Shown: positions 2,024-64,000, numbered from the stretch's first letter. The stretch: DNA of 64,000 nucleotides from an uncultured Ignavibacteria bacterium (GCA_964496505.1 CAZBZV010000015.1:754-64753); one strand, 5' to 3'. Program-made: numbers and translations. Notes: a model not told the origin generated them from the letters alone.

Positions 2024-4627
2024 ATGAAACATGTGAAATTTATTCTGTTGCTTGGTATTATCTTGCTTTCCGGCAATTTCCTCGCGCAGAACGCTGCTTT
2101 CGCGGAATCGTGCTGTGATGTTCCCGGGGACGCAAATGACGATGGCAGTGCCAACGTCAGCGATGCCGTGTACATCATCAATTATGTATTCATAGGAGGG
2201 CCGGTGCCGGCCTGTCACGAGAAGGGTGACGCAAATTGCGATGCCGCAATTAATGTCAGTGATGCAGTCTGGTTAATTAACTATGTCTTCATAGGTGGAA
2301 GACCGCCCTGCTGTATGGACGTAGTCTTTAGGGACGAATACGGCTCCAGGGTGACCTATCAGGCCTTTGCAGGATCATTTCTAGAAGCTGTTCAGGTCAC
2401 AACCGACCCTGTTTATGCTGGTACTCAGGCCTTAGATATCACCATTCCCGATGCAAGCTGGTCGGGAGGTGCATTTGTGGATACCGGTACGGCCGGCCGT
2501 AACCTCTTAGCATATAATGCGCTAACATTTTGGGCCAAAGCCAGTATGGATGCAACTCTCGATGTAGCCGGTATAGCAAATGACAATACCGGAACATCTC
2601 AGTACATTGCAGAAGTAACCGGCCTTGCCCTGACTACCACCTGGCAGCAGTATGTTATTCCTATTCCCCTTGCTGAAAAGCTTAATGCCGAAAATGGTCT
2701 CTTCTACTTTGCTGAAGGTGCTGAAGAGGGAGTTGGATACCAGATTCATATCGACGAAATAGTCTTTGACAGCCTGACTACCATAACCAATCCCCGCCCG
2801 GTAATACCAACTATCACATTGAATGTTACCCAGGATGATGAGATCACATTTGATGGTTCTTATGTGACATTTGATGTTGATGGTACCGATATTCAAGTCA
2901 ATGCCATGATGGACTATTTCACCTTCACATCATCCAATGAAACGGTTGTGTCGGTTGGCGGCGATGGAGTTATCACTGCCGTAGGTCCCGGTACCGCCGA
3001 GTTGACGGCAGTCCTGGGAACATCAAAATCAGTTCCTGCCACCGGAGTTGTTACAGTCAATGTCAGCGGACCTGAGCCTGAACCTGCAACACCTGCGCCG
3101 ACGCCAACGGTTCCATCCGACAGCGTTGTGGCTTTATGGAGCGATGCGTATACCAGTCACCCGGTTGATACCTGGTCGGCTACCTGGGATGATGCTGATG
3201 TTGAGGACTATTTGATCGGCACTGACAGCACCAAAAAGTACACCAACCTGGTTTTCGCAGGAGTTGAATTCACAACTACTACGCTTGACGCTTCTGCAAT
3301 GACCCATTTCCATATCGATGTATGGACTCCGAATTCGACAGCATCTCCGAATGTCTTCAAGGTAAAGTTTGTTGATTTCGGTCCCGACGGTGCATTTGGC
3401 GGCGGTGATGATTCCGAGCATGAATTGATTTTTGATGAAAATACCATGGATACTGAACAGTGGGTAAGTATCGATGTACCTCTGGCCAGTTTCGCTAATC
3501 TGGCATCGACCGAGCATCTGGCTCAGATGGTAATCTCCTCGGTTGGCCTCTCTACTGTTTATATCGACAATATCTATTTCTACGATGCGGGACTTGCCAC
3601 AGAACCGGATGTGGCGGCTTCCACGCCTCCACATGATCCGGGTAATGTTGCCTCACTCTATAGTGATGCATATACTGCCGCCACTACTGTGACCACATGG
3701 TCAGCCCCATGGGATCAGGCAGATGTGGAAGACTTTGCTATTGGCACTGATAACATGAAGAAATACACAAACCTTGTTTATGCCGGTATAGAGTTTAATC
3801 CCCTTGATGCATCTGCGATGACTCATTTTCACATGGATGTCTGGACACCGGATCCAACAGCAGCGCCAAGCGTATTCAAGGTCAAACTTGTCGATTACGG
3901 CGCCGATGGCAATTACGGCGGCGGTGATGATGTTGAGCACGAGTTGACTTTTGATGAAAACACTATGAACACCGCAATGTGGGTGGGCATTGATGTGCCG
4001 CTTACGGATTTCACAAATCTGACGACAACCGGTCATCTGGCCCAGATGGTCATTTCCGGTGATCCAAATACCGTTTTCGTCGACAATATCTATTTCTACC
4101 AGGGTGCTGCAACTGAACCGACATCTTCCGCTCCGACACCTTCTCTTGCTCCGGCTGATGTTTTTTCAATTTTCAGTGATGCTTACACGAACACGGATTT
4201 TGACGTCTGGTCATCCCAATGGGATAATGCTGATGTGGCTGACTTTACTATCGGTTCAGATAATCTGAAGAAATACTATAATCTTGTCTTCTCCATTGCC
4301 GAGTATACTACAACTGGAACCCAGGATATAAGTACAATGACCCATTTCCACATGGATGTCTGGACACCGGATGCTACCGACGCGTCTTCGGAGTTTAAGA
4401 TCAAACTGGTGGACTATGGGCCCAACGGTGTTTGGGATGGCGGCGGTGATGATACCGAGCATGAGTTAACTTTTGATCAGGCCACGATGAGCACCGGCAG
4501 CTGGGTAAGTTTTGATATACCATTAACCGACTTTACCGGATTGACTGGCAGGGAACACTTTGCTCAATTAATTCTCTCTGGTACATATGGAACTGTCTTT
4601 GTTGACAATGTATACTTTCATAAATAA
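2024..4627 (+). CDS. Secreted modular glycan-binding protein: N-terminal dockerin, CBM/galactose-binding-like domain, Ig-like domain, three CBM-like repeats
   Basis: RBS GGAGG; signal peptide ending AAFA; two dockerin repeats (GDANDDGSANVSDAVYIINYVF, GDANCDAAINVSDAVWLINYVF); YNALTFWAK..LTTTWQQYVIP..IHIDEIVF jelly-roll motif; same repeats as the upstream gene; no catalytic motif seen. Confidence 0.82.
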   Translation: MKHVKFILLLGIILLSGNFLAQNAAFAESCCDVPGDANDDGSANVSDAVYIINYVFIGGPVPACHEKGDANCDAAINVSDAVWLINYVFIGGRPPCCMDVVFRDEYGSRVTYQAFAGSFLEAVQVTTDPVYAGTQALDITIPDASWSGGAFVDTGTAGRNLLAYNALTFWAKASMDATLDVAGIANDNTGTSQYIAEVTGLALTTTWQQYVIPIPLAEKLNAENGLFYFAEGAEEGVGYQIHIDEIVFDSLTTITNPRPVIPTITLNVTQDDEITFDGSYVTFDVDGTDIQVNAMMDYFTFTSSNETVVSVGGDGVITAVGPGTAELTAVLGTSKSVPATGVVTVNVSGPEPEPATPAPTPTVPSDSVVALWSDAYTSHPVDTWSATWDDADVEDYLIGTDSTKKYTNLVFAGVEFTTTTLDASAMTHFHIDVWTPNSTASPNVFKVKFVDFGPDGAFGGGDDSEHELIFDENTMDTEQWVSIDVPLASFANLASTEHLAQMVISSVGLSTVYIDNIYFYDAGLATEPDVAASTPPHDPGNVASLYSDAYTAATTVTTWSAPWDQADVEDFAIGTDNMKKYTNLVYAGIEFNPLDASAMTHFHMDVWTPDPTAAPSVFKVKLVDYGADGNYGGGDDVEHELTFDENTMNTAMWVGIDVPLTDFTNLTTTGHLAQMVISGDPNTVFVDNIYFYQGAATEPTSSAPTPSLAPADVFSIFSDAYTNTDFDVWSSQWDNADVADFTIGSDNLKKYYNLVFSIAEYTTTGTQDISTMTHFHMDVWTPDATDASSEFKIKLVDYGPNGVWDGGGDDTEHELTFDQATMSTGSWVSFDIPLTDFTGLTGREHFAQLILSGTYGTVFVDNVYFHK

Positions 4628-4650
4628 ATTGAAGAGATTTCGGAAAAGCG

Positions 4651-5916
4651 ATGAAGGTGAAGCTAACATTGAGTAATACATCTGGAAAAAGGGCCGTTCT
4701 TTCACGGGAACGGCCCCTTGCAAATTCTGTCCTGAAGTTAATCTGGGAAAAAAGAAAGACTTCAAGGGCTGAAATTGCGCGTCTGACAGGATTATCCCGC
4801 TCGACGGTTTCGGAGATTATAGACAATCTTCTTGCCACCGGTTTGATAGCCGAAGTTGGAGCCGGTAAATCCAGCGGCGGAAGGCGTCCTATCGTTTTGG
4901 AATTTCAGGATGAGGCCCGCTGTATTATTGGCGTGGATCTGGGAGCAACCCACGTTTCGGTGGTCCTGACCGATCTGCGAGGCCATGTACTCTCATGGCA
5001 GGAGAAAAAGCATCCTGTAAGAACCGATCCCGAGGGTACCCGTGCGCTTATTATCAGTCTATGTGATCGATGTCTTAAAGAATGGGGCAATGGAAACAAA
5101 CGATTATTTAGTATCGGGGTTGCTGTTCCCAGCCCGGTGGATCCATTGAATCCAAGGCTGTTATCAGAGGTAGTTATCCCGGCCTGGCAGGGCGAAAGCG
5201 GTTTGGAGCAGATTCAAATCAAGTATGGCGTGCCGATTTATGTCGATAATGACGCAAATCTCGGCGCCCTCGCTGAACACTGGTGGGGAGCTGGAAGAGG
5301 CATTAACGATTTTATTTATATAAAAATCGCCCATGGCATCGGTGCCGGTTACATATTGAACGGAGACATATACCGCGGAGCGGGCGGTGTTGCTGGCGAA
5401 ATGGGGCATCTTCCCATAGATCCTAATGGAGAATTATGCGTTTGCGGTTTAAGGGGATGTTTGGCAACCCTTGTAGGAAAACCGGCAATCGCTGAGCGAA
5501 CCAAAAAACTATTGAAGAAATATCCCAAAAGTCAACTCAAGGCTGCAGATCTTACCCTGGATGCCATCGAAAAGGCCGCTCGCAATGGAGATCAATTGGC
5601 TCTGAGGATTGTAAGCGAAGTAGCTGAATACCTGGGAATCGCCATTTCAGGATGGTTTAATTTGATGAATCCAAATCTTGCAATATTGGGTGGGGGTTTT
5701 GCCGGGTTAGGAGAACTTCTTCTCGAGCCGTTACGATCCAAGGTGAGAAATAGTACTTTAGTAAGCAAAGCAGCGGTTGATATTAAAACCAGCGATCTCG
5801 GATCGCGGGCAATAGCAATTGGCGCCGCTACACTGGCTCTTGAGGCAATGTTTGCAGACCCTATCGAAGCACATGCACGGGCAAACGGGAGAATTAATGA
5901 CTCGGTACATCCATAG
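4651..5916 (+). CDS. ROK-family transcriptional repressor (XylR/NagC-like)
   Basis: N-terminal HTH SRAEIARLTGLSRSTVSEII, SSGGRRP, GVDLG, VDNDAN, GEMGH and CVCGLRGCL zinc motif. Confidence 0.95.
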   Translation: MKVKLTLSNTSGKRAVLSRERPLANSVLKLIWEKRKTSRAEIARLTGLSRSTVSEIIDNLLATGLIAEVGAGKSSGGRRPIVLEFQDEARCIIGVDLGATHVSVVLTDLRGHVLSWQEKKHPVRTDPEGTRALIISLCDRCLKEWGNGNKRLFSIGVAVPSPVDPLNPRLLSEVVIPAWQGESGLEQIQIKYGVPIYVDNDANLGALAEHWWGAGRGINDFIYIKIAHGIGAGYILNGDIYRGAGGVAGEMGHLPIDPNGELCVCGLRGCLATLVGKPAIAERTKKLLKKYPKSQLKAADLTLDAIEKAARNGDQLALRIVSEVAEYLGIAISGWFNLMNPNLAILGGGFAGLGELLLEPLRSKVRNSTLVSKAAVDIKTSDLGSRAIAIGAATLALEAMFADPIEAHARANGRINDSVHP

Positions 5917-6718
5917 ATTGAAAATCCTTGTCTTGCTTTTGGCGATATCATTAACAGTAAGTTGCGGCAATAATTCGGTTGAATCTGAGATTACATTGAA
6001 TTTAGTCTGGCAGGATGAATTCGAGGGGCCGGCCGGTCAATCGCCTGATCCGACCAAATGGGATTATGATATTGGAACCGACTGGGGTAATGTTCAGCTT
6101 GAATATGATACTGACAGACCGGAAAATGTCTCATTGGATGGAGAAGGAAATCTGGCTATCACTGCTCGCGAAGAATCATATATGGGGCAAGATTACACCT
6201 CAGCTCGGATTGTAACACGTGGTAAATTCGAACCTACCTATGGCAGAATTGAAGCCCGAATCAAACTTCCAACCGGGCAGGGAATCTGGCCCGCCTTTTG
6301 GATGCTCGGGAGCAACTTCAGTTCGGTTGGCTGGCCGCAATGCGGTGAAATAGACATAATGGAATACCGCGGCCAGGAACCCAGGATTATTCATGGCAGT
6401 CTGCACGGGCCGGGTTATTCCGGTGGGAATGCAATTACACGCAGATTTTATCTGGAAGATGGGCGTTTTGATAATGACTTCCATACTTTTGCTGTGGAAT
6501 GGGAAGCTGGTGTAATAAGGTGGTACATGAATGATATTGAATATCAGACCGTCTATCCATCGCTGGTCGATGGTGAATGGGTTTTCAACCATGCATTTTA
6601 TATCATTCTCAATGTTGCCGTTGGTGGAAATTATGTTGGTCCGCCAGATGAAACCACGGTTTTTCCACAGACAATGCTAATTGACTATGTCAGGGTTTAC
6701 AGTTGGGGAGGGAATTAA
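5897..6718 (+). CDS. GH16 endo-beta-1,3-glucanase (laminarinase-like), lipoprotein
   Basis: WPAFWML and catalytic EIDIME; lipobox LTVSC. Start moved to ATG 5897 (preceded by GGAG), overlapping the end of the ROK gene. Confidence 0.93.
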   Translation: MTRYIHRLKILVLLLAISLTVSCGNNSVESEITLNLVWQDEFEGPAGQSPDPTKWDYDIGTDWGNVQLEYDTDRPENVSLDGEGNLAITAREESYMGQDYTSARIVTRGKFEPTYGRIEARIKLPTGQGIWPAFWMLGSNFSSVGWPQCGEIDIMEYRGQEPRIIHGSLHGPGYSGGNAITRRFYLEDGRFDNDFHTFAVEWEAGVIRWYMNDIEYQTVYPSLVDGEWVFNHAFYIILNVAVGGNYVGPPDETTVFPQTMLIDYVRVYSWGGN

Positions 6719-6806
6719 CGCCCCAAGCTTGTGAATCCCTTTGTTTGGATCTGGAATGCAAAATTATATAGGCCTGCCTATATAGAAATTATAAGAAGAT
6801 CATATA

Positions 6807-8276
6807 ATGAATCCTTCAACAAATTACAAAACCGCACCGGAAGATCGAATATCATTTTCCCAGAGAATTATATACGGTCTGGGCGGTTTGATCAATAACC
6901 TTCTGGCGGCCGCCAGCGGCGGAATGATGATAGTCTTAAATCTTGGCCTTGGAATGAATCCTGCCCTGGTTGGCCTGCTTGGATCGCTTCCAAGATTGAC
7001 CGACGCCTTAACCGATCCGATCATGGGCTTTATTTCCGACAATACCGAATCTCGCTGGGGAAGAAGACGTCCATATATATTTGTAGGGGCGATAGCGGCT
7101 GGTGTTATCTTTGCTATATTGTGGCAGCTTCCAAGAGGACAGAGCGAAACATTTTACTTCGTGTATTTCCTGATCGGATCGATACTATTCTACATGGGTT
7201 ATACCGTATTTGCGACTCCCTGGGTAGCATTGGGGTATGAACTGACGGCTGATTACAATGAGCGTACAAGACTGATGGGTACCCAGAATTTTATCAGTCA
7301 GCTGGCATATGTTGTTTCGCCCTGGTTTCTATGGATAATGACTTATGAGAAGTTTTTCAAGGATCAGGTTGCCGGAGCCGCTGCATTGGCGATAATAATA
7401 GCCATCGTTACAATAGGTATCGGCATCCTCCCGGCAATATTTTTGAGAGAAAAGTACAAGAAAATTGCCCAATCAGAGATCGACAAAAAAGCGATAAAAG
7501 TAAGCGCTTCCAGAGCTCTGTGGAACAATCTTACAAAGTTCTTTAAGGGATTCGCGACCACGGTCAAATCGGGGCCCTTCTTAAAACTCTGTCTGGCTAC
7601 CTTTTTGGTTTTCAATGGCTTTATTTTGGTCTCTTCTTTCCAGTTTTATGTTATCATTTATTACGTCGCCGGAGGTGAACAAAATCTCGGGGCTCAATAT
7701 GCAGGATACGCCGGTACCATTGGAGCTGTTTCAACCTTTATAGTGATTATGATTGTAACATGGATCGGAACCAAAATCGGGAAGCGAAGAGCATTCCTCG
7801 TATCGACTGCAATGTCTATGCTGGGCTATGCCCTTAAATGGATATGCTATAATCCTGATCATCCCTGGTTGGTGATTGTGCCCGCACCGCTTCTGGCATT
7901 CAGTCTTGGGGGATTGTTTACCCTCATGCCATCGATGGTCGCTGATGTAGTTGATTATGATGAATTACAAACCCATCAGCGCCGCGAGGGAATGTTTGGA
8001 TCGATCTTCTGGTGGGTGGTAAAGCTGGGAATGTCGGCGGCTCTAGCAGGTGGAGGATTTCTTCTTAATGCCACCGGTTTTGACGTTGCACTCGAAGGCA
8101 ATCAGACCGCCAATACTATAACTCTTATGCGAATCTTTGATGCCGGGGTGCCTATCGTCACATCGGCCATCGCAATCTGGGCTGTGGCAACATTTCCCAT
8201 AACCGAACAGAAAGCCCGAGAGGTAAGAGAAGTGCTGGAAAAAAGGCGAGGTAAGCCTAATAGTGAAACGTCATAA
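6807..8276 (+). CDS. MFS glycoside-pentoside-hexuronide (GPH) sugar:cation symporter
   Basis: About 12 hydrophobic segments; DALTDPIMGFISD, RWGRRRPY, ELTADYNERT, ADVVDYDE..RREG motifs. Confidence 0.93.
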   Translation: MNPSTNYKTAPEDRISFSQRIIYGLGGLINNLLAAASGGMMIVLNLGLGMNPALVGLLGSLPRLTDALTDPIMGFISDNTESRWGRRRPYIFVGAIAAGVIFAILWQLPRGQSETFYFVYFLIGSILFYMGYTVFATPWVALGYELTADYNERTRLMGTQNFISQLAYVVSPWFLWIMTYEKFFKDQVAGAAALAIIIAIVTIGIGILPAIFLREKYKKIAQSEIDKKAIKVSASRALWNNLTKFFKGFATTVKSGPFLKLCLATFLVFNGFILVSSFQFYVIIYYVAGGEQNLGAQYAGYAGTIGAVSTFIVIMIVTWIGTKIGKRRAFLVSTAMSMLGYALKWICYNPDHPWLVIVPAPLLAFSLGGLFTLMPSMVADVVDYDELQTHQRREGMFGSIFWWVVKLGMSAALAGGGFLLNATGFDVALEGNQTANTITLMRIFDAGVPIVTSAIAIWAVATFPITEQKAREVREVLEKRRGKPNSETS

Positions 8277-8286
8277 TATTTTCTGA

Positions 8287-8330
8287 ATATAAAAAAAGGT
8301 GCCATTTTAAAATGACACCTTTTTTTATAT
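8287..8330. terminator. Bidirectional intrinsic terminator
   Basis: ATATAAAAAAAGGTGCCATT-TTAA-AATGACACCTTTTTTTATAT between convergent genes. Confidence 0.85.
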
Positions 8331-8341
8331 CCGGCTTTTAA

Positions 8342-10555
8342 TTATTCTATAATTTCAAATTCTGACTTAAGATCGGCCTCCGAGCTGCCTCCAACCCATA
8401 GATGGAACCTGCCCGGTTCTGTGACAAGCTTATTATCTTTACTGTAAAATGCCAGATCATCCGTTGTCAATTTAAAGGAAATTGAAGCGGTCTCTCCCGG
8501 AGCAAGCCTGACTCTCTTAAACTGCTTAAGTTCTTTTACGGGGCGGGTCACACTGCCGACAAGATCCCTGACATAAAGCTGAACAGCCTCTTCCGCCTTA
8601 TATTTGCCGGTGTTTTCCAAATCCACAGTGATATTAATGCTCTCTCCCAATTCGATTTTATCTTTGTCCAGGTTGAGACCCGAATATTTAAATTTCGAAT
8701 ATGAAAGACCGTATCCGAAGGGATAAAGCGGGGAATTGTCAATATCAAGATAGAAAGATGTATCTCCGCTTGAATGCTGAGGTGCACCCGCCTCTATATT
8801 GTCAATATTTGTTACAGATTTATCGTTTGCAGGCCGTCCGGTATTCTTATGGTTATAATAAATCGGAATCTGCCCGACTGCTCTTGGAAATGTAACCGGC
8901 AATTTTCCGGAGGGGGATTCAACACCAAACAGGAGTTCCGTAATAGCCGGGCCGGCCATTGTTCCGGGATGCCAGGCATACAAAATGGCATCGACTTTTT
9001 TTCTAATTTCTTCTAAGAGCAAGGGCCTTCCGGCCATAATTACCAGGATTACCGGTTTTCCCAATTTGGAGATTTCATCTATTAGCTCATTTTGAAAACC
9101 TGGCAGACTAATATCAGCCATGCAATGCGCTTCACCGGATAAAATTGATTCTTCACCAAGAAATAAAATGGTCAAATCCGACTTCTTGACCGTTTCAATG
9201 GCATCACCAAACTCTTCTCTGCTTTTGCTGCGCGTAGTTTTCATTGCACGGCTGTAATTAACTTCAACTGAATTTTTGACAAAGGCCTTGATAGCATGAA
9301 GCGGCGTCTGGCTCAATTTTCTGTCCCCGTCAAAAACCCAGGTGCCGAGTTGTTCATAAGCATCATCGGCCAGAGGTCCGATTATGGCAATCGATGATAG
9401 GTGGTTTTCTGACAAAGGGAGAATGTCATGTTTATTTTCCAGCAGAACACAACTCTGAATCGCCGAACTTCTGGCGATCTCAAGTGCCTCATTTAATCTG
9501 GAAGTTCCCGAATTATCTGCTTGAGTATAGGGATTATCGAACAGTCCCAGTTTAAACTTTGCCCGCAGTATGTTGGACGCCATCCTATCAATGTAATCCT
9601 CGGTGATCCTCCCTTCTTCTACCAGTACAGCGAGATGATCGGCATAGGTTCGACTGACCATTTCCATATCGACACCGGCATTTGCCGCCTGGTAGGCCGA
9701 TTCTTTATCATTTGCCGTCAATCCATGAACCGATAATTGACTGATTGCCTCCCAGTCGCTGACCACGAATCCGTTAAACTGCCATTCCTGTCGAAGGATT
9801 TGCTTCAAGAGAAATTCATTGGCCGTGGCCGGAATGCCGTCCAGGTCACTAAATGATGTCATTACTGATAATACACCGGCTAAGTGTGCGGCCTTGAACG
9901 GCGAAAGATAGACATTCCTCAGTTCGTTTTCGGGGATATTGGTGGTGTTATAGTCCTTCCCGGCCTCACATGCGCCATAACCGGCAAAATGCTTGGCACA
10001 GGCGGCTATACAATCTGACTTAGAGGGATCGTCACCCTGAAAACCTTGAATTATTGCCCTTGCAAACACTCCACTGAGATAGGGATCTTCACCGAAAGAC
10101 TCGGCAATTCGTCCCCAGCGAGGATCACGGCTGATATCGATCATTGGCGCAAAGGTCCAGTTGATACCGGCCTGTGAAGCTTCCTGCGCTGAAATTCGTC
10201 CACATTGCCTGACAACTTCAGGATTCCATGTCGCAGCGAGACCCAGAGGAATTGGAAAAATCGTTTTAAATCCGTGTATTACATCGCGGCCAATCAGAAG
10301 AGGAATACCCAGGCGGCTCTCTTCCACCGCTATTCGCTGAAGCTCATTTACAATATTGACATCAACCTCATTAAGAATACCGCCGATATTGCCATTGGTA
10401 ATTGTTTCTTTGAGTGATTTGGAAATCTTCCCAAATATACTATTCACCAATGACAACTGACCAATTTTTTCAGAAATGGTCATATCCTCTATCAGCTTTT
10501 CAATCTGCTTTTCTATTGCTGCTGAATCTTTCGCTGTTTTTTCGGCTATAGCCAT
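8342..10555 (-). CDS. bglX: GH3 beta-glucosidase (BglX-like), no signal peptide
   Basis: SRLGIPLL, DVIHG, RDPRWGR, CAKHFAGYG, nucleophile VSDW, C-terminal Fn3-like domain VQLYVRD..RPVKELK. Confidence 0.93.
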   Translation of the reverse strand: MAIAEKTAKDSAAIEKQIEKLIEDMTISEKIGQLSLVNSIFGKISKSLKETITNGNIGGILNEVDVNIVNELQRIAVEESRLGIPLLIGRDVIHGFKTIFPIPLGLAATWNPEVVRQCGRISAQEASQAGINWTFAPMIDISRDPRWGRIAESFGEDPYLSGVFARAIIQGFQGDDPSKSDCIAACAKHFAGYGACEAGKDYNTTNIPENELRNVYLSPFKAAHLAGVLSVMTSFSDLDGIPATANEFLLKQILRQEWQFNGFVVSDWEAISQLSVHGLTANDKESAYQAANAGVDMEMVSRTYADHLAVLVEEGRITEDYIDRMASNILRAKFKLGLFDNPYTQADNSGTSRLNEALEIARSSAIQSCVLLENKHDILPLSENHLSSIAIIGPLADDAYEQLGTWVFDGDRKLSQTPLHAIKAFVKNSVEVNYSRAMKTTRSKSREEFGDAIETVKKSDLTILFLGEESILSGEAHCMADISLPGFQNELIDEISKLGKPVILVIMAGRPLLLEEIRKKVDAILYAWHPGTMAGPAITELLFGVESPSGKLPVTFPRAVGQIPIYYNHKNTGRPANDKSVTNIDNIEAGAPQHSSGDTSFYLDIDNSPLYPFGYGLSYSKFKYSGLNLDKDKIELGESINITVDLENTGKYKAEEAVQLYVRDLVGSVTRPVKELKQFKRVRLAPGETASISFKLTTDDLAFYSKDNKLVTEPGRFHLWVGGSSEADLKSEFEIIE

Positions 10556-10560
10556 CCTGA

Positions 10561-13725: not shown

Positions 13726-13816
13726 ATACTATCTCCCGGGCTTATAAGTCTATGCAAAATAAGGAATTTATCTTAAAGATAATAATTCTAAAATACAAAA
13801 TCCTCCAATCCGAAAA

Positions 13817-13841
13817 ACTTTGTTCTCTTATCGAACAAAGT
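13817..13841. promoter_or_regulatory. XylR/ROK-type operator palindrome
   Basis: ACTTTGTTC-N7-GAACAAAGT, a perfect 9-bp inverted repeat overlapping the -10 box of the GH-A/GH3 operon promoter. Confidence 0.75.
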
Positions 13842-44630: not shown

Positions 44631-44636
44631 GCAAAC

Positions 44637-55265: not shown

Positions 55266-58004
55266 TTAACAGTCCGGCTCGCCATCGCCGTTGGGATCGC
55301 CCGGCGTATTTCCGCCGATAAAGACAAAGTTTATAATCATCACGGCATCCGAGACATTCACAGAGCCATCGCAATTGGCATCACCCGAAGCCTCCTCGGG
55401 AATTGGCGGATCGCCGCCGATGAAGACATAGTTGATGATCAAAACCGCATCGCTGACATTAATATCGCCGTCGTTGTTGGCATCCCCGACAATATAAAGC
55501 GGGGCAACATTCAATGGCATCGGGGGAGATGTGTAATAAGGCGTATCATTTAACATCAATTCAATGTTAAAATCGGTAAGACCGGCATCAAGGGCAGTGA
55601 ATTGCATACTCCAGTTGCCCATCATTTCAACAGTGGCAATGGTAGGATCTCCCACTGAAACATCCATGGAATAATAATTCGTATCCGGCTGATAAATCTG
55701 CGCCTGATCGTCCATAAACCAAACCTCATACTCCGGCGAGACATCACCCTCGATCAATTCCAATGAGCCCAGAATAACGTCATCATCAACTGTAAGGATA
55801 ACACTGGTTGAATCATAAAGGTGCAGACCGAATACAGGTACCTCCTCGAAACACTGAATCTGCGTAACCTCAAAGGCATCAATCCCGGCCTCCACAATGC
55901 TCTGCGGTTCTCCATCATTGGCGGTGAAACGTATCTGCATATTATCGCTCAAAGTCACCCCGGCTGCGGCCAGGTCGAGATCGGTGATCTCGTAATGCGC
56001 CCAATCGAGGCCGTTGCTTTCGTCGTGAACAGCAATCGTAGTCCATGTCCCTGCGCCCCCGTTATTATTGATTTCCACCTGGAGTTTATCCACGCCGCCT
56101 TCGGTATTCGTCAGGAAAAGATAATAATCATAGGATATAGCCCCGGGCAGAGACATATCAAAGACAGGCGAGGTCAGTCTTACCGCGCCGTTATCGATAT
56201 CAGTATTACCGAACTGATTCTGGGTCAGGTAGCACATTCCGCTGCCGTCGGCATCCGAGGAAGGGTCATAATCCCAGCCGTCATCATCAACCGGCACACC
56301 TCTCTCCCAGTATCCGCTGGTTGCCCCCAGGTTTGATGCTACCCAGCCCTGATCCAGTTGGAAATTATCCTGCATGGAATAAGCCAGATTCGTTGCAGAA
56401 GCCGCTGTATGTGGAACATCGGTATCATAAAACCTGCCGTTCTCCTCTTCATCGGCGCCCACATAGAACTGCACCCGATTGCCGCATGCAGTGCCGGGGA
56501 TTGTTGCGGTATATATATTGGGAAGCGTCTCGGTCATTGCGGTGCTGTCGAACGCTCCGCCATCAATGGCATAAAAGAGCTTGCCTGAGCCGGGAACCGG
56601 AGTGCCGCTGTTAACGCCGTAAACCTGGACATTAAATGTTGTCGGCTGATCCGGGGTTAACTCCTCTGGAAGCCCACCGGGAAAATCAAAGGCCACATGG
56701 GGCTGGGCATAAGTCTGGCCGACCACATAAACAGTCGCCAGTGCCGCCTTGGTCATCTCGGTCATATATTCAAAATTCATGTAAGTCGTGCTGTCCTTGT
56801 AGCTGTGGTAGACAGTCGAGAAAATACCCTCATGCAGGAATGTCGCCTCGTAGCCGTTTTGTATGAAGGGATGATGATCGGAGCCTGAGAGTGATCCGGC
56901 GAAGCTGGAAGTTATCCCTACCAGAGAATCTGCCAGATCGGCAAACAAGTTGGTATAGGTCAGAATAGGCCCGTAGTACAGCTTACAGGTATTGGTATTC
57001 TCGTAATGCGCGATCATATCCATATTGAACATATAAATAATGCTGTCGCCATTGGCCGCGGCATTATCAGCATAATGATATGAGCCGTTTAATCCCTGTT
57101 CTTCCGAATCAAAAGCAATGAATATAAAGGTAACATCGGTCTGCTCATTCATTAGAATTCGCGCCAGCTCTATTGTGGCTGCAGTGCCGGAGCCATTGTC
57201 ATCTGCTGCAGGCGAGCCGCTGACCCCGTCAAAATGCCCTCCCACGACTATTTGTAGATCGGGTCGGACAGTTCCTTCCTTGACCGCGACGACATTGTAG
57301 CAGTTTCCGACATATGATGTGAATGGATCGAGGTAAACCGAATCATAGCCGAATTCGATAAATTTGGACTGGATCCAGTCGCGTGCGGCATAATTGGAAT
57401 CAGTTCCGGCAAGGCGATGGTAGAAAGCCTGAAGTCGGTATGTATAGGATTCCAGCGAATCCTGACTGACATTGGAGATTAATGTCATTAAATCACCCAC
57501 GCCGGTTATCATATCGCGGTCCAGTTTTTCCGCCTCCGGAAATACCACGGGTACCTCTCCCGGTCTCAGGCGCACAAGCTGCGGCCGCGGCTCCATCAGA
57601 TCAATCTGCTCGGAATCAACCCGATAAACACGCATTTCCCCCGATTCATAAACTATCTCGAATTTTTCAGCATTCTCCCTGTCCATTCGATTATCAAGAG
57701 CCAGTTCAACCTGGCTGATATCGGAGGCAAGAAAACGATAATCCAGACCGGATTCATCCAGGGCCTCGGCATTGCTCGGTTCAATCAGGGCAAGATAGCC
57801 GTCATGCAATGCCAGTACCGGCATTGCCGGGGAGGCTTTTAGTTTCAAAGCCTGCTCTTTTGAAAATACTGAAATTTTGTAAAGATCGCCCCGCAAGATT
57901 TGCTCTTCATTAAATGGGATATCCTCAGCAAATGAGGGATTTGCCAATAACAATCCAAAAAACAACGCTGCAATCAACCCAAAGCTTGTACCGGCCTTAA
58001 TCAT
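55266..58004 (-). CDS. M28-family aminopeptidase with accessory beta domains and C-terminal dockerin
   Basis: Signal peptide; GGHFD, ADDNGSG, SEEQGLNGS, NMDM, SDH, YH; dockerin GDANNDGDINVSDAVLIINYVF / GDANCDGSVNVSDAVMIINFVF. Confidence 0.9.
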   Translation of the reverse strand: MIKAGTSFGLIAALFFGLLLANPSFAEDIPFNEEQILRGDLYKISVFSKEQALKLKASPAMPVLALHDGYLALIEPSNAEALDESGLDYRFLASDISQVELALDNRMDRENAEKFEIVYESGEMRVYRVDSEQIDLMEPRPQLVRLRPGEVPVVFPEAEKLDRDMITGVGDLMTLISNVSQDSLESYTYRLQAFYHRLAGTDSNYAARDWIQSKFIEFGYDSVYLDPFTSYVGNCYNVVAVKEGTVRPDLQIVVGGHFDGVSGSPAADDNGSGTAATIELARILMNEQTDVTFIFIAFDSEEQGLNGSYHYADNAAANGDSIIYMFNMDMIAHYENTNTCKLYYGPILTYTNLFADLADSLVGITSSFAGSLSGSDHHPFIQNGYEATFLHEGIFSTVYHSYKDSTTYMNFEYMTEMTKAALATVYVVGQTYAQPHVAFDFPGGLPEELTPDQPTTFNVQVYGVNSGTPVPGSGKLFYAIDGGAFDSTAMTETLPNIYTATIPGTACGNRVQFYVGADEEENGRFYDTDVPHTAASATNLAYSMQDNFQLDQGWVASNLGATSGYWERGVPVDDDGWDYDPSSDADGSGMCYLTQNQFGNTDIDNGAVRLTSPVFDMSLPGAISYDYYLFLTNTEGGVDKLQVEINNNGGAGTWTTIAVHDESNGLDWAHYEITDLDLAAAGVTLSDNMQIRFTANDGEPQSIVEAGIDAFEVTQIQCFEEVPVFGLHLYDSTSVILTVDDDVILGSLELIEGDVSPEYEVWFMDDQAQIYQPDTNYYSMDVSVGDPTIATVEMMGNWSMQFTALDAGLTDFNIELMLNDTPYYTSPPMPLNVAPLYIVGDANNDGDINVSDAVLIINYVFIGGDPPIPEEASGDANCDGSVNVSDAVMIINFVFIGGNTPGDPNGDGEPDC

Positions 58005-58321: not shown

Positions 58322-59590
58322 ATGGAGCGTAATGAACTTTCCAGCAGATTCCTGGAAGTCAGAAAGAAGTCGGAGGAGCTTTGCGAACCGCTTGAAACCG
58401 AAGACTATGTAGTTCAGCCTGTTGATGATGTCAGCCCGCCCAAATGGCATATCGGGCACACGTCATGGTTCTTCGAACGCTTACTTCTACAGGAATACGA
58501 GCCGAATTTCAAGCTTTTTCACGACCAGTATCACTACATTTTCAACTCATATTATGAATCTCTCGGTGAAAGAGTAATGCGCACCCTGAGGGGTACGCTG
58601 TCACGTCCTACCGTAGCAGAAGTAATGGAATATCGCAAATCGGTAACCGAGCGTATGTTGAATCTGCTGGAAAAGGTTGATGATGAGAAATGGCCTGAAA
58701 TCGAAACGCTTACCACTCTTGGAATAAATCATGAACAGCAGCATCAAGAGCTTTTCCTGATGGATATCAAATATATCTATTCCGCCAATCCATTAAAGCC
58801 TGCCTATAATAAAGATTTTGAGGAAATTCCAGCGAGTAAACATAATGACAGAAGATATCTTCTTTTCAAAGGAGGACAACATCAGATCGGCGCTAACGGC
58901 TACGGTTTTGCCTATGATAACGAATATCCCCGGCATGATACATTGATACGCGATTTCGCGCTGGCCAAACATCCAGTCACCAACGGGGAATACCTGGAAT
59001 TTATGAATGACGGCGGATATGAGGATCATCGTCTCTGGCTATCCGACGGCTGGGATACAATCAATACTCAAAAATGGAAACACCCGTTGCACTGGGAGAA
59101 GACCAAAGATGGCTGGATGGTTATGACTCTCTCAGGATTCAAACCGGTAAATCCAGATGAACCCGTATCCCATGTCAGCTATTACGAGGCTTCGGCCTTT
59201 GCACGCTGGGCCGGGAAACGTTTGCCGTCGGAGGATGAATGGGAGTTTGCCGCAAGTCAGAAAGGCAATTCGGTAGAAGAGGGCAATTTCATGGATAACA
59301 GAATTTATCATCCCACGGGCAACATCCTGCCTCAGGATGAGGACAGGCTCAATTCCATGATGGGCGACCTGTGGGAATGGACAATGAGCGCATATCTGCC
59401 CTATCCCGGATACGAGCAGGCTTTTGGCGCTCTGGGTGAATATAACGGTAAATTCATGAGTAATCAGATGGTGCTCAGGGGCGGATGCTGCGCGACTCCG
59501 CGCGACCATATCCGTCCAACATACAGAAATTTCTTTCAATGTGATAAACGCTGGCAGTTCAGTGGAATAAGACTGGCCGAGGATGCCTGA
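58322..59590 (+). CDS. egtB: Ergothioneine biosynthesis sulfoxide synthase EgtB
   Basis: DinB-like SPPKWHIGHTSWFFE, FNSYY, HEQQHQE; FGE-sulfatase-like domain RLPSEDEWE, GEYNGKFM, YRNFF. Confidence 0.93.
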   Translation: MERNELSSRFLEVRKKSEELCEPLETEDYVVQPVDDVSPPKWHIGHTSWFFERLLLQEYEPNFKLFHDQYHYIFNSYYESLGERVMRTLRGTLSRPTVAEVMEYRKSVTERMLNLLEKVDDEKWPEIETLTTLGINHEQQHQELFLMDIKYIYSANPLKPAYNKDFEEIPASKHNDRRYLLFKGGQHQIGANGYGFAYDNEYPRHDTLIRDFALAKHPVTNGEYLEFMNDGGYEDHRLWLSDGWDTINTQKWKHPLHWEKTKDGWMVMTLSGFKPVNPDEPVSHVSYYEASAFARWAGKRLPSEDEWEFAASQKGNSVEEGNFMDNRIYHPTGNILPQDEDRLNSMMGDLWEWTMSAYLPYPGYEQAFGALGEYNGKFMSNQMVLRGGCCATPRDHIRPTYRNFFQCDKRWQFSGIRLAEDA

Positions 59591-60629
59591 TATGAAAACA
59601 AAAGACAAAAACCGGCAGATGAGAGTGATAAATCCGGGCGAAAGCCTAGAAAGATTCGGCGATCTGGAGGAATTCGCAATCGATGTTTTGGTTGGATTGT
59701 CCGAAATAAACAAGAAACTGCCCTCGAAATATCTCTATGACGCTGAGGGCAGCCGTCTCTTTAAGGAGATAACGGGCCTGAAGGAATATTATCCAACCGA
59801 ATGCGAGAGAGAGACCCTGGAAAATAACAAGGATCGGATTGTAAGCCATATGGCTGACGAAGCGTTTAATCTGGTTGAATTCGGTTCCGGCGATGGGCAG
59901 AAAACCAGCCTGCTGCTGGAGCATTTCCTCAAACTCGATCTGGATTTTCAGTATGCCCCGATAGATATCTCCCAGTCTGTCATGGTCGAGCTTTTTGATG
60001 ACCTGGATCAGAAATTTCCATCCCTCCAGGTGGAAGGTATAGTCTCGGAATATTTCTCTGGCATCAGATGGCTGAATAATCGTTCGGACCGGAAAAACCT
60101 GGTTTTATTCCTGGGATCGAATATCGGCAATTTCAGCCATGCCGAAGCGCGAATATTCCTGCGAAATCTTTGGAGCTGCCTGAATAATGGCGATCTGGTA
60201 CTGGTCGGTTTTGACCTGAAGAAGGATATCGAGATGCTGCTGAAAGCATATAACGATTCAGAAGGCGTAACTGCCAAATTCAACATTAACATCCTCACCA
60301 GAATAAACCGCGAGCTGGGCGGGCAGTTCGATCTTTCAAAATTCAGGCATTTCGGCACATACGATGTATTTACCGGCGCCATGGAAAGCTACCTGGTCAG
60401 CCTGGAACGGCAGGAGGTCTTTGTCGAGGAGATTGGGCGCTCATTCAGCTTCCGCCCCTGGGAGCCCATTCATGTCGAATACTCCTACAAGTATCTGCAG
60501 TCCGACATCGAAATCCTCGCAAAGGAAACCGGCTTTAAAGTACGTGAACATCTGTACGATTCCAAAAAGTATTTCATCGACTCGATCTGGGAAGTAAAGA
60601 AGACCGAGAATAACAACAGCCAATGTTAG
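59583..60629 (+). CDS. egtD: L-histidine N-alpha-methyltransferase EgtD
   Basis: LPSKYLYDAEGSRLF, EYYPT, EFGSGDGQKT, FLGSNIGNF, AYNDSEGVTAKFN, EYSYKY. Confidence 0.94.
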   Translation: MPDMKTKDKNRQMRVINPGESLERFGDLEEFAIDVLVGLSEINKKLPSKYLYDAEGSRLFKEITGLKEYYPTECERETLENNKDRIVSHMADEAFNLVEFGSGDGQKTSLLLEHFLKLDLDFQYAPIDISQSVMVELFDDLDQKFPSLQVEGIVSEYFSGIRWLNNRSDRKNLVLFLGSNIGNFSHAEARIFLRNLWSCLNNGDLVLVGFDLKKDIEMLLKAYNDSEGVTAKFNINILTRINRELGGQFDLSKFRHFGTYDVFTGAMESYLVSLERQEVFVEEIGRSFSFRPWEPIHVEYSYKYLQSDIEILAKETGFKVREHLYDSKKYFIDSIWEVKKTENNNSQC

Positions 60630-60639
60630 GAAGCTCTTT

Positions 60640-62016
60640 ATGAGCAAAAACTATGATGCGATTATCATCGGCACCGGGCAGGGAGGAGTCCCCCTGGCGG
60701 TCGATCTTGCCAATGCCGGATGGAAAACTGCTGTTATCGAGAAAGCCCACCCTGGAGGGAGTTGTATTAATTTTGGATGTACTCCTACCAAAACCATGAT
60801 CGCCAGCGCGCGGGTGGCATATCTCGCAAAACGCGGCCTTGATTTTGGAGTCGAGAGCGGCGATGTCAGGGTTGATCTTAAAAAAGTCCGCGATCGCAAA
60901 CGTCAGATAGTAAGCAGCTTCAGAAGCGGTGTAGAAAAACGGCTGGAGCATGACAATATCGATCTGATTCACGGTCAGGCGGAATTTTTATCCTCGAATG
61001 AAATCAAAGTGAGAAATACAGATGGCGAGACGATAATCTCTGGCAAAAAGATCTTTATTAATACCGGCACGCGGCCCTCGGTGCCTCCGATAGAGGGCAT
61101 CGACGAAGTCGGCCCTCTGGACTCTGAAGCGATTATGGAGCTCGATTCCCTCCCTGAGCATCTGGTTATAATCGGTGGAGGATATATCGGCTGCGAGTTC
61201 GGGCAGATTTTCAGACGATTCGGCAGCCGGGTGACAATAATCCAGCGTGATGACGCTCTTCTCAACCGGGAGGATCCCGATATTTCCGAAGAGGTGGCAA
61301 AGATATTCAAACAGGACGGTATCGAAGTGCTTTTTAACACCGAGGCCAAAAGTGTGATAAAAAATGAAAGCGGCAAAATATTAATGACACTCAAGACCGA
61401 GATGGGAGAAAAGCCTCTGGAAGCGTCACATCTGATGATGGCGTCGGGACGGACGCCCAATACGGACATGCTAAACCTAAAAGCGGCTGGTGTAAAAAGC
61501 GATGAGCGCGGATTTATTCCGGCTAATGATCGCCTGCAAACATCTGTCGAGGGAATCTACTGCCTCGGCGATGTTAAAGGAGGCCCGGCTTTCACGCATA
61601 TATCCTATGATGACTATCGAGTACTGAAGGAGAATCTGCTAAATGACGGAAATTCTTCAATAGAAGGGCGTCTGGTTCCCTATGTTGTCTTCATCGATCC
61701 ACAACTCGGACGGGTCGGAATGAACGAGACTGAAGCAAAAGCGGCGAATCTGAATTACAAAGTTGCTAAAATGCCTATGAAAAAGGCGGCTCGTGCGCTT
61801 GAGATGGACGAGACTCGCGGCCTGATGAAAGCGGTTGTTGATGCCGACTCCGGACTTATTCTGGGCTGTACGATTCTGGGAGTTGAAGGGGGCGAGATTA
61901 TGAATGTACTTCAGATGGCTATGCTGGGGAAAGTGCCCTACACAAAAATTCGCGATACCGCAATCGCCCATCCCACACTGGGCGAATCATTGAACAATCT
62001 CTTTATGACCATATAA
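60640..62016 (+). CDS. Class-I pyridine nucleotide-disulfide oxidoreductase (RclA/MerA-like core)
   Basis: IIGTGQGG, GGSCINFGCTPTK, IGGGYIG, GDVKGGPAFTH, HPTLGE; no NmerA domain and no C-terminal Cys pair. Confidence 0.9.
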   Translation: MSKNYDAIIIGTGQGGVPLAVDLANAGWKTAVIEKAHPGGSCINFGCTPTKTMIASARVAYLAKRGLDFGVESGDVRVDLKKVRDRKRQIVSSFRSGVEKRLEHDNIDLIHGQAEFLSSNEIKVRNTDGETIISGKKIFINTGTRPSVPPIEGIDEVGPLDSEAIMELDSLPEHLVIIGGGYIGCEFGQIFRRFGSRVTIIQRDDALLNREDPDISEEVAKIFKQDGIEVLFNTEAKSVIKNESGKILMTLKTEMGEKPLEASHLMMASGRTPNTDMLNLKAAGVKSDERGFIPANDRLQTSVEGIYCLGDVKGGPAFTHISYDDYRVLKENLLNDGNSSIEGRLVPYVVFIDPQLGRVGMNETEAKAANLNYKVAKMPMKKAARALEMDETRGLMKAVVDADSGLILGCTILGVEGGEIMNVLQMAMLGKVPYTKIRDTAIAHPTLGESLNNLFMTI

Positions 62017-62226: not shown

Positions 62227-62441
62227 CAACGCGGGTGGGGCACCCAGAAAATATATACCTGCCCAAACGAAGTTTGAGCAGCCCACCCACATAACAATAA
62301 TAATGGAATTTGCAGGTCATATCCCTGCAAGATTTGACGGCGTCGAAAGTCACAGACTTTCGGCATGCCAATATGAATCTAAGGCAGAATCGCTCCCTTA
62401 AGCCTCACTTAATTTCGGATTCTGCCTCATTCCTATTAATT

Positions 62442-64000
62442 TTATTTCCCGCAGCAATTCGGATCGGGCGGGTTGCCGCCGATGAATACATAGTTGATAA
62501 TCAAAACAGCATCCGAGACATTAACCGAACCATCGGCATTGGCATCACCCACACACAATGGAACCGGCGCGGCGCCGCCAATGAAGACATAGTTGATTAC
62601 GATTACTGCATCCGACACATTCACGCTCAAATCATTATTGCAGTCGCCGCAGATAACGTCATATTCTGTGGTAAATGTCCAGACCGGACCGGCAGTCGAT
62701 TCATCGGCCTCGTCAAAGGCAATAATCTGCCAGAAATACTCCGTGCCGTATTCAAGATCAGTGGGCGGATCATAGACCTGCGCCAGTTGATCATCGCTTA
62801 TAAGCGGTGGTGGATCGGTCGTTCCGAAGTAAACATCGTAATGTACCTGGTCATTGGTATTGGGATCGCCGCCCATCCAGCTCAATGATGCTGTCAGGGC
62901 AACTCCGGTTGCCTTGTCTTCGGGATCGGGAGAGGCGGGAGCATAAGGCGGAACATTCGGTTCCGGAATCAGCGACTTGAAGGCATAGGCAATGCCGGAG
63001 GAACCAAAGGTAAGGCAGGCAATGTTCGGCTCGGTGTTGGCCGAGATATCTCCTACCTGGATATGCTTTACGGCGTCTGCGCAGTTGTAGCTGAAAAGCT
63101 CGCTACCGTCGTTATCTATAACATACAGCTTATTGTCATCTCCACCGGCAATCGCCTCATCATCACCATCACCGTCGACATCATACCCGAACACGCTTTG
63201 AACATCATCGCCAATCGGGAAGCTCCAGATCAAAGAACCGGTCAGGCCATCATAAGCATAGACCGAGGCTGATGATCCGCCGCCCACAATCACATCCGGA
63301 TTCTTGTCGCCGTTGATATCGCCATGAGCCAGTCCGTAAGCGTTACTGTTAAGATCGACCGAGGCGGTCCAGAGCGTATCATGAGTAGCGCCGTCGATCA
63401 TGTAGACCGTATTGGGATTTAAGGAAACACCTGCGGCCACATCCGGAACATCATCATTGTTAACATCAAAAACTTCCACATATTCAACCTTATTGGCGCA
63501 GACATACTCCCACATAAAGGATCCGTCACTGCCGTCCACAACAACAACCCTGCTTCCGTTCGTTGCTCCCGTCAGTCCGCAGACCACATCGACAGGACCG
63601 CTGCCATTCATCTGGGCAACCGCTACTTCCTCCAGATCGGCTCCTGCCGGATAATTCCAGATCTCGAGCCCGGTAGTGCCGTCAATAGCATAAACATGGC
63701 TGTCGTCAGTACCCGCGATAACATCATCGGCGCCGTCGCCATTCAGATCGGCAGATACGAGACAGGAGCGGTAAATCTGGTCTGTGGGTGTGGTAAATTG
63801 CCAGAGAATATCCCCGCTCATACCGTCCAAAGCGGTAACCATATCATCCGCGCCGCCAACCGCTATATCATAATCGCCGTCATTATCGTAATCCCCATGA
63901 GTGATCGCATACAGGTTTTCTGTGCCGGTCCATGACCAAAGAATAACATCTCCTGTCTTGCCGTCAATAGCGGTAGCTTTGTCATCGACGGAAACAGCCG
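62442..64000 (-). CDS. 5'-truncated FG-GAP/PQQ-like beta-propeller protein with Fn3-like domain and C-terminal dockerin
   Basis: Frame is open to the window edge; repeated DxNGDGxxDV and AIDGxTGxxIW motifs; LSW..YDVYFGT..TEYFWQI; dockerin CGDCNNDLSVNVSDAV / GDANADGSVNVSDAV. Confidence 0.85.
   Translation of the reverse strand, partial: AVSVDDKATAIDGKTGDVILWSWTGTENLYAITHGDYDNDGDYDIAVGGADDMVTALDGMSGDILWQFTTPTDQIYRSCLVSADLNGDGADDVIAGTDDSHVYAIDGTTGLEIWNYPAGADLEEVAVAQMNGSGPVDVVCGLTGATNGSRVVVVDGSDGSFMWEYVCANKVEYVEVFDVNNDDVPDVAAGVSLNPNTVYMIDGATHDTLWTASVDLNSNAYGLAHGDINGDKNPDVIVGGGSSASVYAYDGLTGSLIWSFPIGDDVQSVFGYDVDGDGDDEAIAGGDDNKLYVIDNDGSELFSYNCADAVKHIQVGDISANTEPNIACLTFGSSGIAYAFKSLIPEPNVPPYAPASPDPEDKATGVALTASLSWMGGDPNTNDQVHYDVYFGTTDPPPLISDDQLAQVYDPPTDLEYGTEYFWQIIAFDEADESTAGPVWTFTTEYDVICGDCNNDLSVNVSDAVIVINYVFIGGAAPVPLCVGDANADGSVNVSDAVLIINYVFIGGNPPDPNCCGK

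Follow-up and report, generated by a model that had tools for sequence, protein, structure and literature searches.

A candidate type IX secretion-anchored, mainly proteolytic cohesin-dockerin display system across a Zixibacteria genome and its phylum

Seven genes dispersed over one stretch of DNA from an uncultured bacterium each carry a dockerin, and the locus raises the question of whether these genes belong to a working cohesin-dockerin system and, if so, what that system would do for the cell. The stretch analyzed here (the window, meaning the whole 64,000 nucleotides, nt) comprises bases 754-64753 of one contig (C15) of a 3.9-Mb assembly in 143 contigs, with a completeness of 96% and a contamination of 3.7%; the host genome is a member of the phylum Zixibacteria. 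A first-pass annotation of the window had proposed an extracellular complex, or a surface tag, for polymer scavenging. Much of that proposal stands, in that the dockerins are genuine, a cohesin fold is predicted, cohesin anchors with a type IX secretion system (T9SS) sorting tail are present and the clients include hydrolases; what has to be revised is its extent and its emphasis, as the trait is genome- and phylum-wide and the cargo is mainly proteolytic. We consider that the window genes form part of a genome- and phylum-wide, T9SS-anchored, mainly proteolytic cohesin-dockerin display, and place the probability of this reading at roughly 60%. The window itself holds 7 of the 120 dockerin genes of the genome, the anchoring parts lie outside it, and the beta-glucan proteins that it encodes are a minority of the cargo, bearing the rarer N-terminal form of the dockerin.

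A Pfam scan of the 37 open reading frames (ORFs) of the window places the type I-like Dockerin_1 (PF00404, cut-off 22.9 bits) above its cut-off in all seven genes named in the first-pass annotation, at 31.2-46.2 bits, and in no other ORF. In translation, each of these dockerins consists of two tandem segments of ~22 residues, with a Ca loop (D-x-N/D-x-D-G...D) followed by a helix; both repeats are retained in alignments, and helices are predicted at the expected places in models of two of the seven products, proteins C and B (the seven are called A to G in their order along the window). The duplicated dockerin described earlier is thus borne out, and so is its placement, which is N-terminal in proteins A (~2111-2314) and B (~14283-14489) and C-terminal in the other five. 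The signature N[VI]SDAV..I[NE]..F.GG occurs in all 10 of the repeats that the five non-cohesin proteins contain, as had been reported, and the flanking Cys residues are not only present in the window dockerins but are general across the genome, where Cys stands on either side of the module in 92 of the 109 dockerins of full length.

Three of the C-terminal dockerins belong to putative peptidases and a propeller protein. Protein E (48284-50665, plus strand) is an S8 subtilisin-family peptidase (Peptidase_S8, 127.9 bits) whose likely real start, judged from the sequence, is the Met at nt ~48401; its dockerin (~50402-50614, 34.5 bits) is followed by a Cys-rich tail of 23 amino acids (aa) at 50615-50662. 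Protein F (912 aa; 55266-58004, minus strand) belongs to the M28 aminopeptidase family (Peptidase_M28, 111.3 bits) and has its dockerin at ~55296-55496 (38.7 bits), with a Ca-loop-like tail of 14 aa at 55266-55340 whose final residue is Cys. Protein G (62442-64000, minus strand) is an FG-GAP/PQQ-type beta-propeller with a dockerin at ~62448-62663 (41.2 bits in the part of the ORF that was scanned, 62442-63842); its ORF extends past the window end and measures 994 aa on the contig.

The remaining two C-terminal dockerins are borne by the proteins that had been labeled cohesin-like. Proteins C (491 aa; 32987-34462) and D (490 aa; 34492-35964), both on the plus strand, are tandem paralogues with 66% identity. 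Protein C has a signal peptide and an adaptor-type architecture composed of a cohesin (~33116-33679), an internal divergent dockerin (~33698-33901), a beta module referred to as X (~33977-34237), and a divergent C-terminal dockerin (~34244-34453; Dockerin_1, 37.6 bits). The same order is found in protein D, with the cohesin at ~34621-35181, the internal dockerin at ~35200-35403, X at ~35479-35739, and the C-terminal dockerin at ~35746-35955 (36.3 bits). In a six-frame scan against Pfam Cohesin (PF00963, cut-off 24.1 bits), protein C scores 23.8 bits (24.7 with neighbors) and protein D 24.5 bits. An AlphaFold model of protein C, made with 14 homologues, has a mean predicted local distance difference test (pLDDT) value of 72, with values of ~80-90 over the N-terminal sandwich (aa 42-229). 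Compared with the PDB by Foldseek, this model has only cohesins among the top matches listed (5nrk_A, E 4.6e-8, template modeling score 0.80 on the target), and its 88 PDB matches at E<=0.001 reach a score of up to 0.81 on the target, in keeping with the flattened, nine-stranded beta-sandwich (jelly-roll) of cohesins. The N-terminal domains of C and D are therefore predicted to fold as cohesins. The cohesin-like label thus gains a predicted fold in protein C despite a marginal Pfam score, and the possibility, raised in the first-pass annotation, that no cohesin fold would be predicted was examined, with the opposite outcome.

The alignment further reveals that a helical module, which is conserved, separates the cohesin from the X module. 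This module is a divergent dockerin, as it is matched by hhalign at 94.7% (E 6.4e-8), compared with 0.1% for the X module used as a control. The C-terminal dockerins of C and D are also among the most divergent of the genome, with an identity to the genome consensus of 0.45 and 0.47, respectively, against a median of 0.71. In another lineage, a homologue of protein C (P0014) ends in a T9SS tail where C has its dockerin. Prediction of a complex between the C cohesin (aa 38-232) and the dockerin of the S8 protease with two Ca, run without controls, scored 0.14 and 0.09, the mark being 0.32, and counts neither for nor against binding.

Outside the window, the dockerin recurs throughout the genome, as judged from searches over its 13,630 six-frame ORFs. 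Genome-wide counts, which had been suggested as a check on the proposal, amount to 117 matches for PF00404 (116 over cut-off) and 16 for PF00963 (8 over cut-off). A profile built from the seven window dockerins finds 120 dockerin ORFs, of which 110 have the module at the C-terminus, 9 at the N-terminus and 1 in an internal position, such that dockerin-tagged genes make up ~3-4% of the genes of the genome. The signature mentioned above has 109 matches in 69 of the 13,630 ORFs and none in residue-shuffled ORFs. The dockerin cores have a mean column identity of 66% (46 cores), far above that of the unrelated bodies that bear them, as would be expected for modules with a common partner. By a crude heuristic, a signal-peptide-like hydrophobic stretch is present in 109 of 119 dockerin ORFs, compared with 1,113 of 2,663 among all ORFs of at least 200 aa.

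What the dockerin is attached to was tallied by hand from Pfam for the 113 dockerin ORFs outside the window and the 7 inside; the 11 cohesin-only ORFs were also scanned. Peptidases account for 38 of the 120, comprising S8 (12), gingipain-like C25 (5), C1 (5), M1 (4), M28 (3), M14 (3), C11 (2), C10 (2), M4 (1), and a C39-like family (1). The rest include PAD_porph, the Porphyromonas-type peptidyl-arginine deiminase (2), propellers (8), Fib_succ_major (6), cohesin-bearing proteins (5), and beta-helix proteins (4); another 14 have some other recognized domain, and 43 have no Pfam domain beyond the dockerin. Among the non-peptidase cargo, a few proteins are putatively glycan-active. Classic cellulase Pfam families occur in none of the 120 dockerin ORFs, and a GH16 (glycoside hydrolase family 16) fold occurs in one, protein B. 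A Fib_succ_major (PF09603) C-terminus is found on six of the nine N-terminal-dockerin proteins, encoded on contigs C4, C33, C43 and C99 (L083, L115, L125, and L140), with three such genes in a row on C43. In these proteins, the dockerin appears to move to the N-terminus where the C-terminus is occupied.

The dockerins also differ in what follows their last helix. The largest class (47 ORFs, including protein F) has a tail of exactly 14 residues, PC-DxDGDGxPD-C, in which the last residue is Cys and which resembles a third Ca loop of the thrombospondin type (TSP3-like). Other classes comprise Cys-rich tails of 20-23 residues (~15 ORFs, including protein E), tails of 8 residues with PCxxC (~15 ORFs, including C and D), and tails ending in PCDC (~7 ORFs). 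The division into classes may reflect differences in cohesin specificity or a recognized C-terminus. Thrombospondin-type Ca repeats are also found elsewhere within dockerin proteins.

On the cohesin side, cohesins other than those of C and D score clearly over the PF00963 cut-off, at 63.1, 38.0, and 29.4 bits. Searching with a profile made from the C/D cohesin yields 11 ORFs, with the internal dockerin adjoining in 10 and the X module in 8; together with the Pfam-type cohesins, the total is 15 ORFs and ~16 modules. Eight cohesin ORFs end in Por_Secre_tail, with three in a row on C41, two on C2, and one each on C11, C5, and C38. Cohesin proteins that end in a dockerin are C and D of the window and one protein each on C47 and C27, and these look like adaptors. 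Cohesin-bearing proteins have dockerins that count among the most divergent, with 0.29-0.50 identity to the consensus, compared with the median given above. Furthermore, genes for cohesins and dockerins are clustered: another dockerin ORF lies no more than 5 kb away from 9 of the 15 cohesin ORFs, whereas the control mean is 2.9 and none of 2,000 samples reaches 9, in a test whose loci are not independent and in which C and D count each other. The densest cluster (G000:C41:15868-37488; L123, L124) consists of a dockerin gene, three consecutive cohesin/T9SS-tail genes, one of which encodes two cohesins and a divergent internal dockerin, and a gene for a 3,376-aa Big_9/cadherin-repeat protein ending in a dockerin; it is a candidate for a core "sca-like" locus.

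The genome also encodes the machinery that the sorting tails call for. It contains 54 T9SS sorting domains, SprA (695 bits, cut-off 200) and the PorU sortase (680 bits, cut-off 420), and a PorV-like gene that scores under its cut-off adjoins PorU. Of 52 proteins with a T9SS C-terminal domain (CTD), 24 are paralogous to a dockerin protein; in one such case, an S8 plus FG-GAP body, the identity is 45% over 1,124 aa. Judged from these alignments, the dockerin and the T9SS tail are most probably alternative addresses on paralogous bodies.

Dockerin and cassette also occur together across the phylum. PF00404 is present in 80 of 81 sampled genomes, many with at least 69 matches, and the C/D cassette is present in the same 80; the remaining genome, which is 94% complete, is without either. 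Throughout the phylum, the cassette of cohesin, internal dockerin and X is present in numerous copies per genome. The nearest relatives of protein C, at 62-65% identity, are in Candidatus Zixiibacteriota assemblies, and 557 relatives were confirmed in one-per-species genomes, which also include Ignavibacteria, Calditrichota, and GN15. A horizontally acquired island confined to the window was considered and rejected, as dockerin genes lie on dozens of contigs and occur phylum-wide.

A mechanism in line with these observations can be proposed. About 120 proteins would be exported by the Sec route carrying a duplicated-F-hand, Cys-stapled dockerin, usually at the extreme C-terminus. Cohesin proteins with a T9SS tail would be exported via SprA, and PorU would attach them to the outer membrane on its outer face. 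The dockerin enzymes, which are mainly peptidases, would then plug Ca-dependently into these surface cohesins, either directly or through adaptors of the C/D type, for which we predict the pairing rule that the cohesin accepts an enzyme dockerin and the protein's own divergent dockerin plugs into another cohesin. In this way the cell would keep both its hydrolases and their products at the surface.

Several results weigh against such a display. In the protein-level scan, the Pfam Cohesin scores of C (22.3 bits) and D (22.9 bits) lie just under the cut-off. No multi-cohesin scaffoldin was found in the genome, where the maximum is two cohesins per ORF (C41:22928-25198); because no ORF has more than two, "multi-enzyme complex" may overstate the arrangement, which could be one-to-one display. 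The ~16 cohesins face 120 dockerins (~1:7), an imbalance for which expression level would have to compensate. In addition, client export poses a puzzle, because the clients lack a T9SS tail (the profile finds one on 1 of 120 dockerin ORFs) and no type II secretion system (T2SS) was found in genome searches of the 96% complete assembly. By Pfam coordinates, three ORFs (on C41, C61, and C63) have a dockerin-like stretch just before the CTD. A canonical T2SS was considered as the client export route and set aside on the same searches. The only secretin is PilQ, which scores 307 bits as such (over cut-off) and 200 bits, against a cut-off of 351, as GspD; its gene lies within a pilM-pilN-pilO-AMIN-pilQ operon, and the genome has just one gene of the PilC/GspF type. 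As the assembly consists of 143 contigs and is 96% complete, an export system might be missing from it. Clients would therefore leave the cell by a pilus-type machine, by a system missing from the assembly, or by riding on cohesin-CTD proteins.

The last of these routes would turn the dockerin primarily into an export tag, with clients that fold in the periplasm, plug into T9SS-tailed cohesins and hitch-hike out non-covalently, display being a by-product. The possession of signal peptides by clients without a T9SS tail, the presence of a full T9SS core in a genome where no T2SS was found, and the exchange of dockerin and CTD on paralogous bodies all favor this idea, as does the fact that C25, PPAD (Porphyromonas peptidyl-arginine deiminase) and C10 families carry dockerins here. 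The C25 gingipains, PPAD, and C10 are classic T9SS cargo in Porphyromonas. Of the 120 ORFs, 110 have the dockerin at their extreme C-terminus, and the fixed 14-residue, Cys-ended tail of 47 ORFs has the regularity typical of a recognized terminus. However, we know of no case in which T9SS takes out passengers that are bound non-covalently, the nine N-terminal dockerins indicate that the terminus is not essential, the clients could instead leave by the single type IV pilus-type machine, and one cohesin carrier would be needed per client, though carriers could be cleaved and recycled. On balance we regard an export tag as fairly improbable. The fuller form of the idea, in which the pairing is a second, indirect T9SS signal and ~110 enzymes dock in the periplasm, are pulled through SprA and arrive assembled, is slightly more doubtful; if hitch-hiking did occur, the fixed-length, Cys-ended Ca-loop tails would help plug stability during transit. 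The predicted display in which clients plug into cohesins already at the surface remains the preferred reading, and it must also be set against the possibility that the two modules do not meet at all. Dockerin-like modules could be stand-alone, Ca-binding, disulfide-stapled stabilizers or adhesins (for polysaccharide, lipopolysaccharide, or mineral), with the cohesin folds doing something else. Non-cellulosomal dockerin-like modules of unknown role are reportedly widespread, which lends this some weight, and the Cys staples and the third TSP3-like Ca loop are unlike clostridial dockerins, thrombospondin-type Ca repeats recur in the same proteins, and dockerins outnumber cohesins by ~7:1. Nevertheless, helix faces are strongly conserved over more than 100 unrelated proteins and point to one shared protein partner; the dockerin co-occurs strictly with the cohesin cassette, both being present in 80 of the 81 genomes and neither in the other; the genes of the two cluster; and cohesin proteins bear divergent dockerins, a feature also of hierarchical cellulosomes. 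Stand-alone function is, in our judgment, unlikely.

The cohesins could also bind a partner other than the enzymes. If the cassette served mainly for self-assembly, each cohesin would bind the internal dockerin-X dyad of the next copy, giving a polymeric coat or fiber on the cell in which enzymes are secondary decoration. The cohesin and the internal dockerin of the cassette always lie side by side (10 ORFs), the internal one is a true dockerin homologue according to the hhalign comparison with its control, the beta X module that follows it is reminiscent of type II X-dockerin dyads, and cassettes occur on both T9SS-anchored and dockerin-ended proteins, in many copies per genome. Such a coat presupposes that the internal dockerin, identified by its sequence, would bind in trans rather than in cis, which is an assumption, and it leaves the 110 enzyme-type dockerins unexplained; we give it little credence. 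Display of peptidases through dockerins on T9SS-anchored cohesins thus remains the reading that we prefer.

If that reading holds, there are consequences for how these organisms live and for how the modules might be used. Zixibacteria are widespread, uncultured members of anoxic communities whose feeding has been inferred from genomes only. A peptidase-dominated tag in nearly every sampled genome would make cell-bound proteolysis a central lifestyle trait of the phylum, and the dockerin would serve as a simple genomic marker of it. The system also supplies many natural dockerins with disulfide staples and three Ca loops, which fall into at least four tail classes, plus a new cohesin/dockerin/X cassette; new orthogonal pairs with which to assemble proteins could come from these. 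Furthermore, a secretion question is raised, namely how more than 100 tail-less enzymes would reach T9SS-anchored receptors in a diderm in which no T2SS was found.

The two N-terminal-dockerin proteins of the window deserve separate mention. Protein A (867 aa; 2024-4627, plus strand) has a signal peptide, a Cys-stapled dockerin (aa 34-88, 31.2 bits) and a Big_2 domain, followed by three repeats of ~170 aa that are probably carbohydrate-binding. The dockerin is its sole match to the PDB by phmmer, and by sequence both A and B match the PDB through the dockerin only. Its nearest ESM Atlas clusters (0.96-0.89) bear the automatic name carbohydrate-binding, and some of their members have Big_2 and CBM_11; the label of carbohydrate-binding module (CBM) protein given to it in the first-pass annotation is accordingly kept as a lead only. 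Protein B (439 aa; 14115-15434, plus strand) fares better with its GH16-like label. Pfam, phmmer against the PDB and BLASTP against the window's own GH16 give no link to GH16; the model (pLDDT 85) of the protein, whose dockerin (aa 62-115, 46.2 bits) precedes a domain at ~14490-15431, matches GH16 lichenases and laminarinases (1gbg, E 1.4e-9, template modeling score 0.71), and nearly all of the top 50 PDB folds are GH16. Residues E324, D326, and E328 (ExDxE), which we take to be the GH16 catalytic motif, are invariant across 31 homologues. Protein B is therefore predicted to fold as a GH16 beta-glucanase with a beta-jelly-roll, a case that fold and motif alone make. Its homologues outside Zixibacteria have a T9SS tail or a PEGA domain in place of the dockerin.

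Genes for A and B lie within a candidate beta-1,3-glucan (laminarin-type) utilization locus at 2024-21345, which also holds a ROK regulator, a GH16 enzyme, an MFS_2 sugar transporter, a GH3 enzyme, a 1,054-aa GH2-like protein, an aldo-keto reductase, a GH17-like protein, and a 1,140-aa ORF with a distant match to GH149 beta-1,3-glucan phosphorylase (130 bits, cut-off 1150). Elsewhere in the window, 26228-29293 encodes a protein of 1,021 aa in which PD40/WD40-like beta-propeller repeats are joined to a C-terminal Omp85-superfamily barrel, an unusual barrel fusion. Tandem 455-aa paralogues (38538-39905 and 39935-41302; 57% identity) lie between a DUF4932 protein and an M16 peptidase and have only weak matches to PaaK-type adenylate-forming ligases, at <=73 bits and far under the cut-offs. 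A 920-aa protein (50737-53499) has PPDK_N, the AMP/ATP-binding domain of pyruvate phosphate dikinase, as its sole recognized domain (residues 344-722). At 58322-62016, beside peptidase genes, there is an ergothioneine-type pair of EgtB (TIGR03440, 564 bits, cut-off 360) and EgtD (TIGR03438, 304 bits, cut-off 291), unexpected for a presumed anaerobe; it is followed by a flavin adenine dinucleotide-dependent pyridine nucleotide-disulfide oxidoreductase under all equivalog cut-offs.

Comparison with known systems places these findings in context. Clostridial and ruminococcal cellulosomes use type I, II, and III cohesin-dockerin pairs, and their richest producers have roughly 70 to more than 200 dockerins, a range within which the number found here falls. 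Shared features are the duplicated F-hand dockerin, the cohesin beta-sandwich and adaptors with both cohesin and dockerin; near-symmetrical dockerin repeats are compatible with dual binding in both. In contrast, the host here is Gram-negative and a T9SS tail, rather than an S-layer homology domain or sortase, provides the anchor; the cargo is dominated by peptidases, with no multi-cohesin primary scaffoldin, CBM3, or cellulases found; and the dockerins, unlike clostridial ones, are Cys-stapled, often with an extra Ca-loop-like tail. By Pfam, neither CBM2 nor CBM3 is matched on any cohesin ORF. Because it has no multi-cohesin scaffoldin with a cellulose-binding CBM and no dockerin-borne cellulases, the system is not a cellulosome in the strict sense.

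Closer counterparts are found in two other bacterial groups. In the available part of the report on Candidatus Stygibacter (Cloacimonadota), C-terminal dockerins are described on GH18, GH57, S8, and C25 enzymes, together with one 3,755-aa scaffoldin with tandem cohesins, CBM2/CBM3, and a T9SS C-terminal domain for attachment to the surface, with protein and non-cellulosic glycans as its suggested targets (Williams et al., 2021; PMC8542988). As far as that text describes it, this Gram-negative system from the same superphylum resembles the present one in its signal-peptide enzymes with C-terminal dockerins, including S8 and C25, and its T9SS-tailed cohesin protein; what would characterize a T9SS-anchored cellulosome-like system is found here as T9SS-tailed cohesins, SprA and PorU, and 12 S8 plus 5 C25 dockerin peptidases. 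According to the same text, however, Candidatus Stygibacter has few dockerin enzymes and one scaffoldin, whereas here there are 120 dockerin ORFs and many anchors with one or two cohesins, and the cohesin/internal-dockerin/X cassette, adaptors, dockerins at the N-terminus, and dockerins with Cys staples and a third Ca loop are features of the present system and not of the one described there. Crossing of the outer membrane by clients is not raised in that part of the paper. The "planctosome" of freshwater Planctomycetes (Nemodlikiaceae), again as given in the available part of its report, is a model in which a non-cellulolytic cohesin-dockerin system degrades polypeptides; its parts are an anchoring protein, a dockerin plus cohesin adaptor, and dockerin metallopeptidases including M14 (Andrei et al., 2019; PMC6461901). 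It is like the present system in being non-cellulolytic and proteolytic and in its anchor, adaptor, and dockerin M14 peptidases, and differs, on that text, in its lamin-tail anchor and its handful of parts, compared with a T9SS anchor, ~3-4% of genes and 80 of 81 genomes here. Dockerin repeats in the available part of an Omnitrophota giant-gene preprint lie inside giant proteins and were set aside as a different system.

The concept is thus already in print for Cloacimonadota and Planctomycetes. In the open-access literature (main texts, without subscription journals or supplements), no relevant report was found for dockerin, cohesin, or cellulosome in Zixibacteria, nothing relevant for dockerin with Latescibacteria, and, in the parts of the articles available, single mentions only for dockerin with Ignavibacteria. 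What can be counted as new is the phylum, the far larger scale, the small anchors without a multi-cohesin scaffoldin, the cassette, and the Cys-stapled, extra-loop dockerins. Finally, a close likeness exists to T9SS display in Bacteroidota, as with the gingipains and PPAD of Porphyromonas, with which this genome shares the C25, PPAD-type, C10, and S8 families as well as SprA, PorU, and a PorV-like gene. In Bacteroidota each cargo has its own CTD, whereas here most such enzymes bear a dockerin and the sorting domain is placed on the cohesin proteins.

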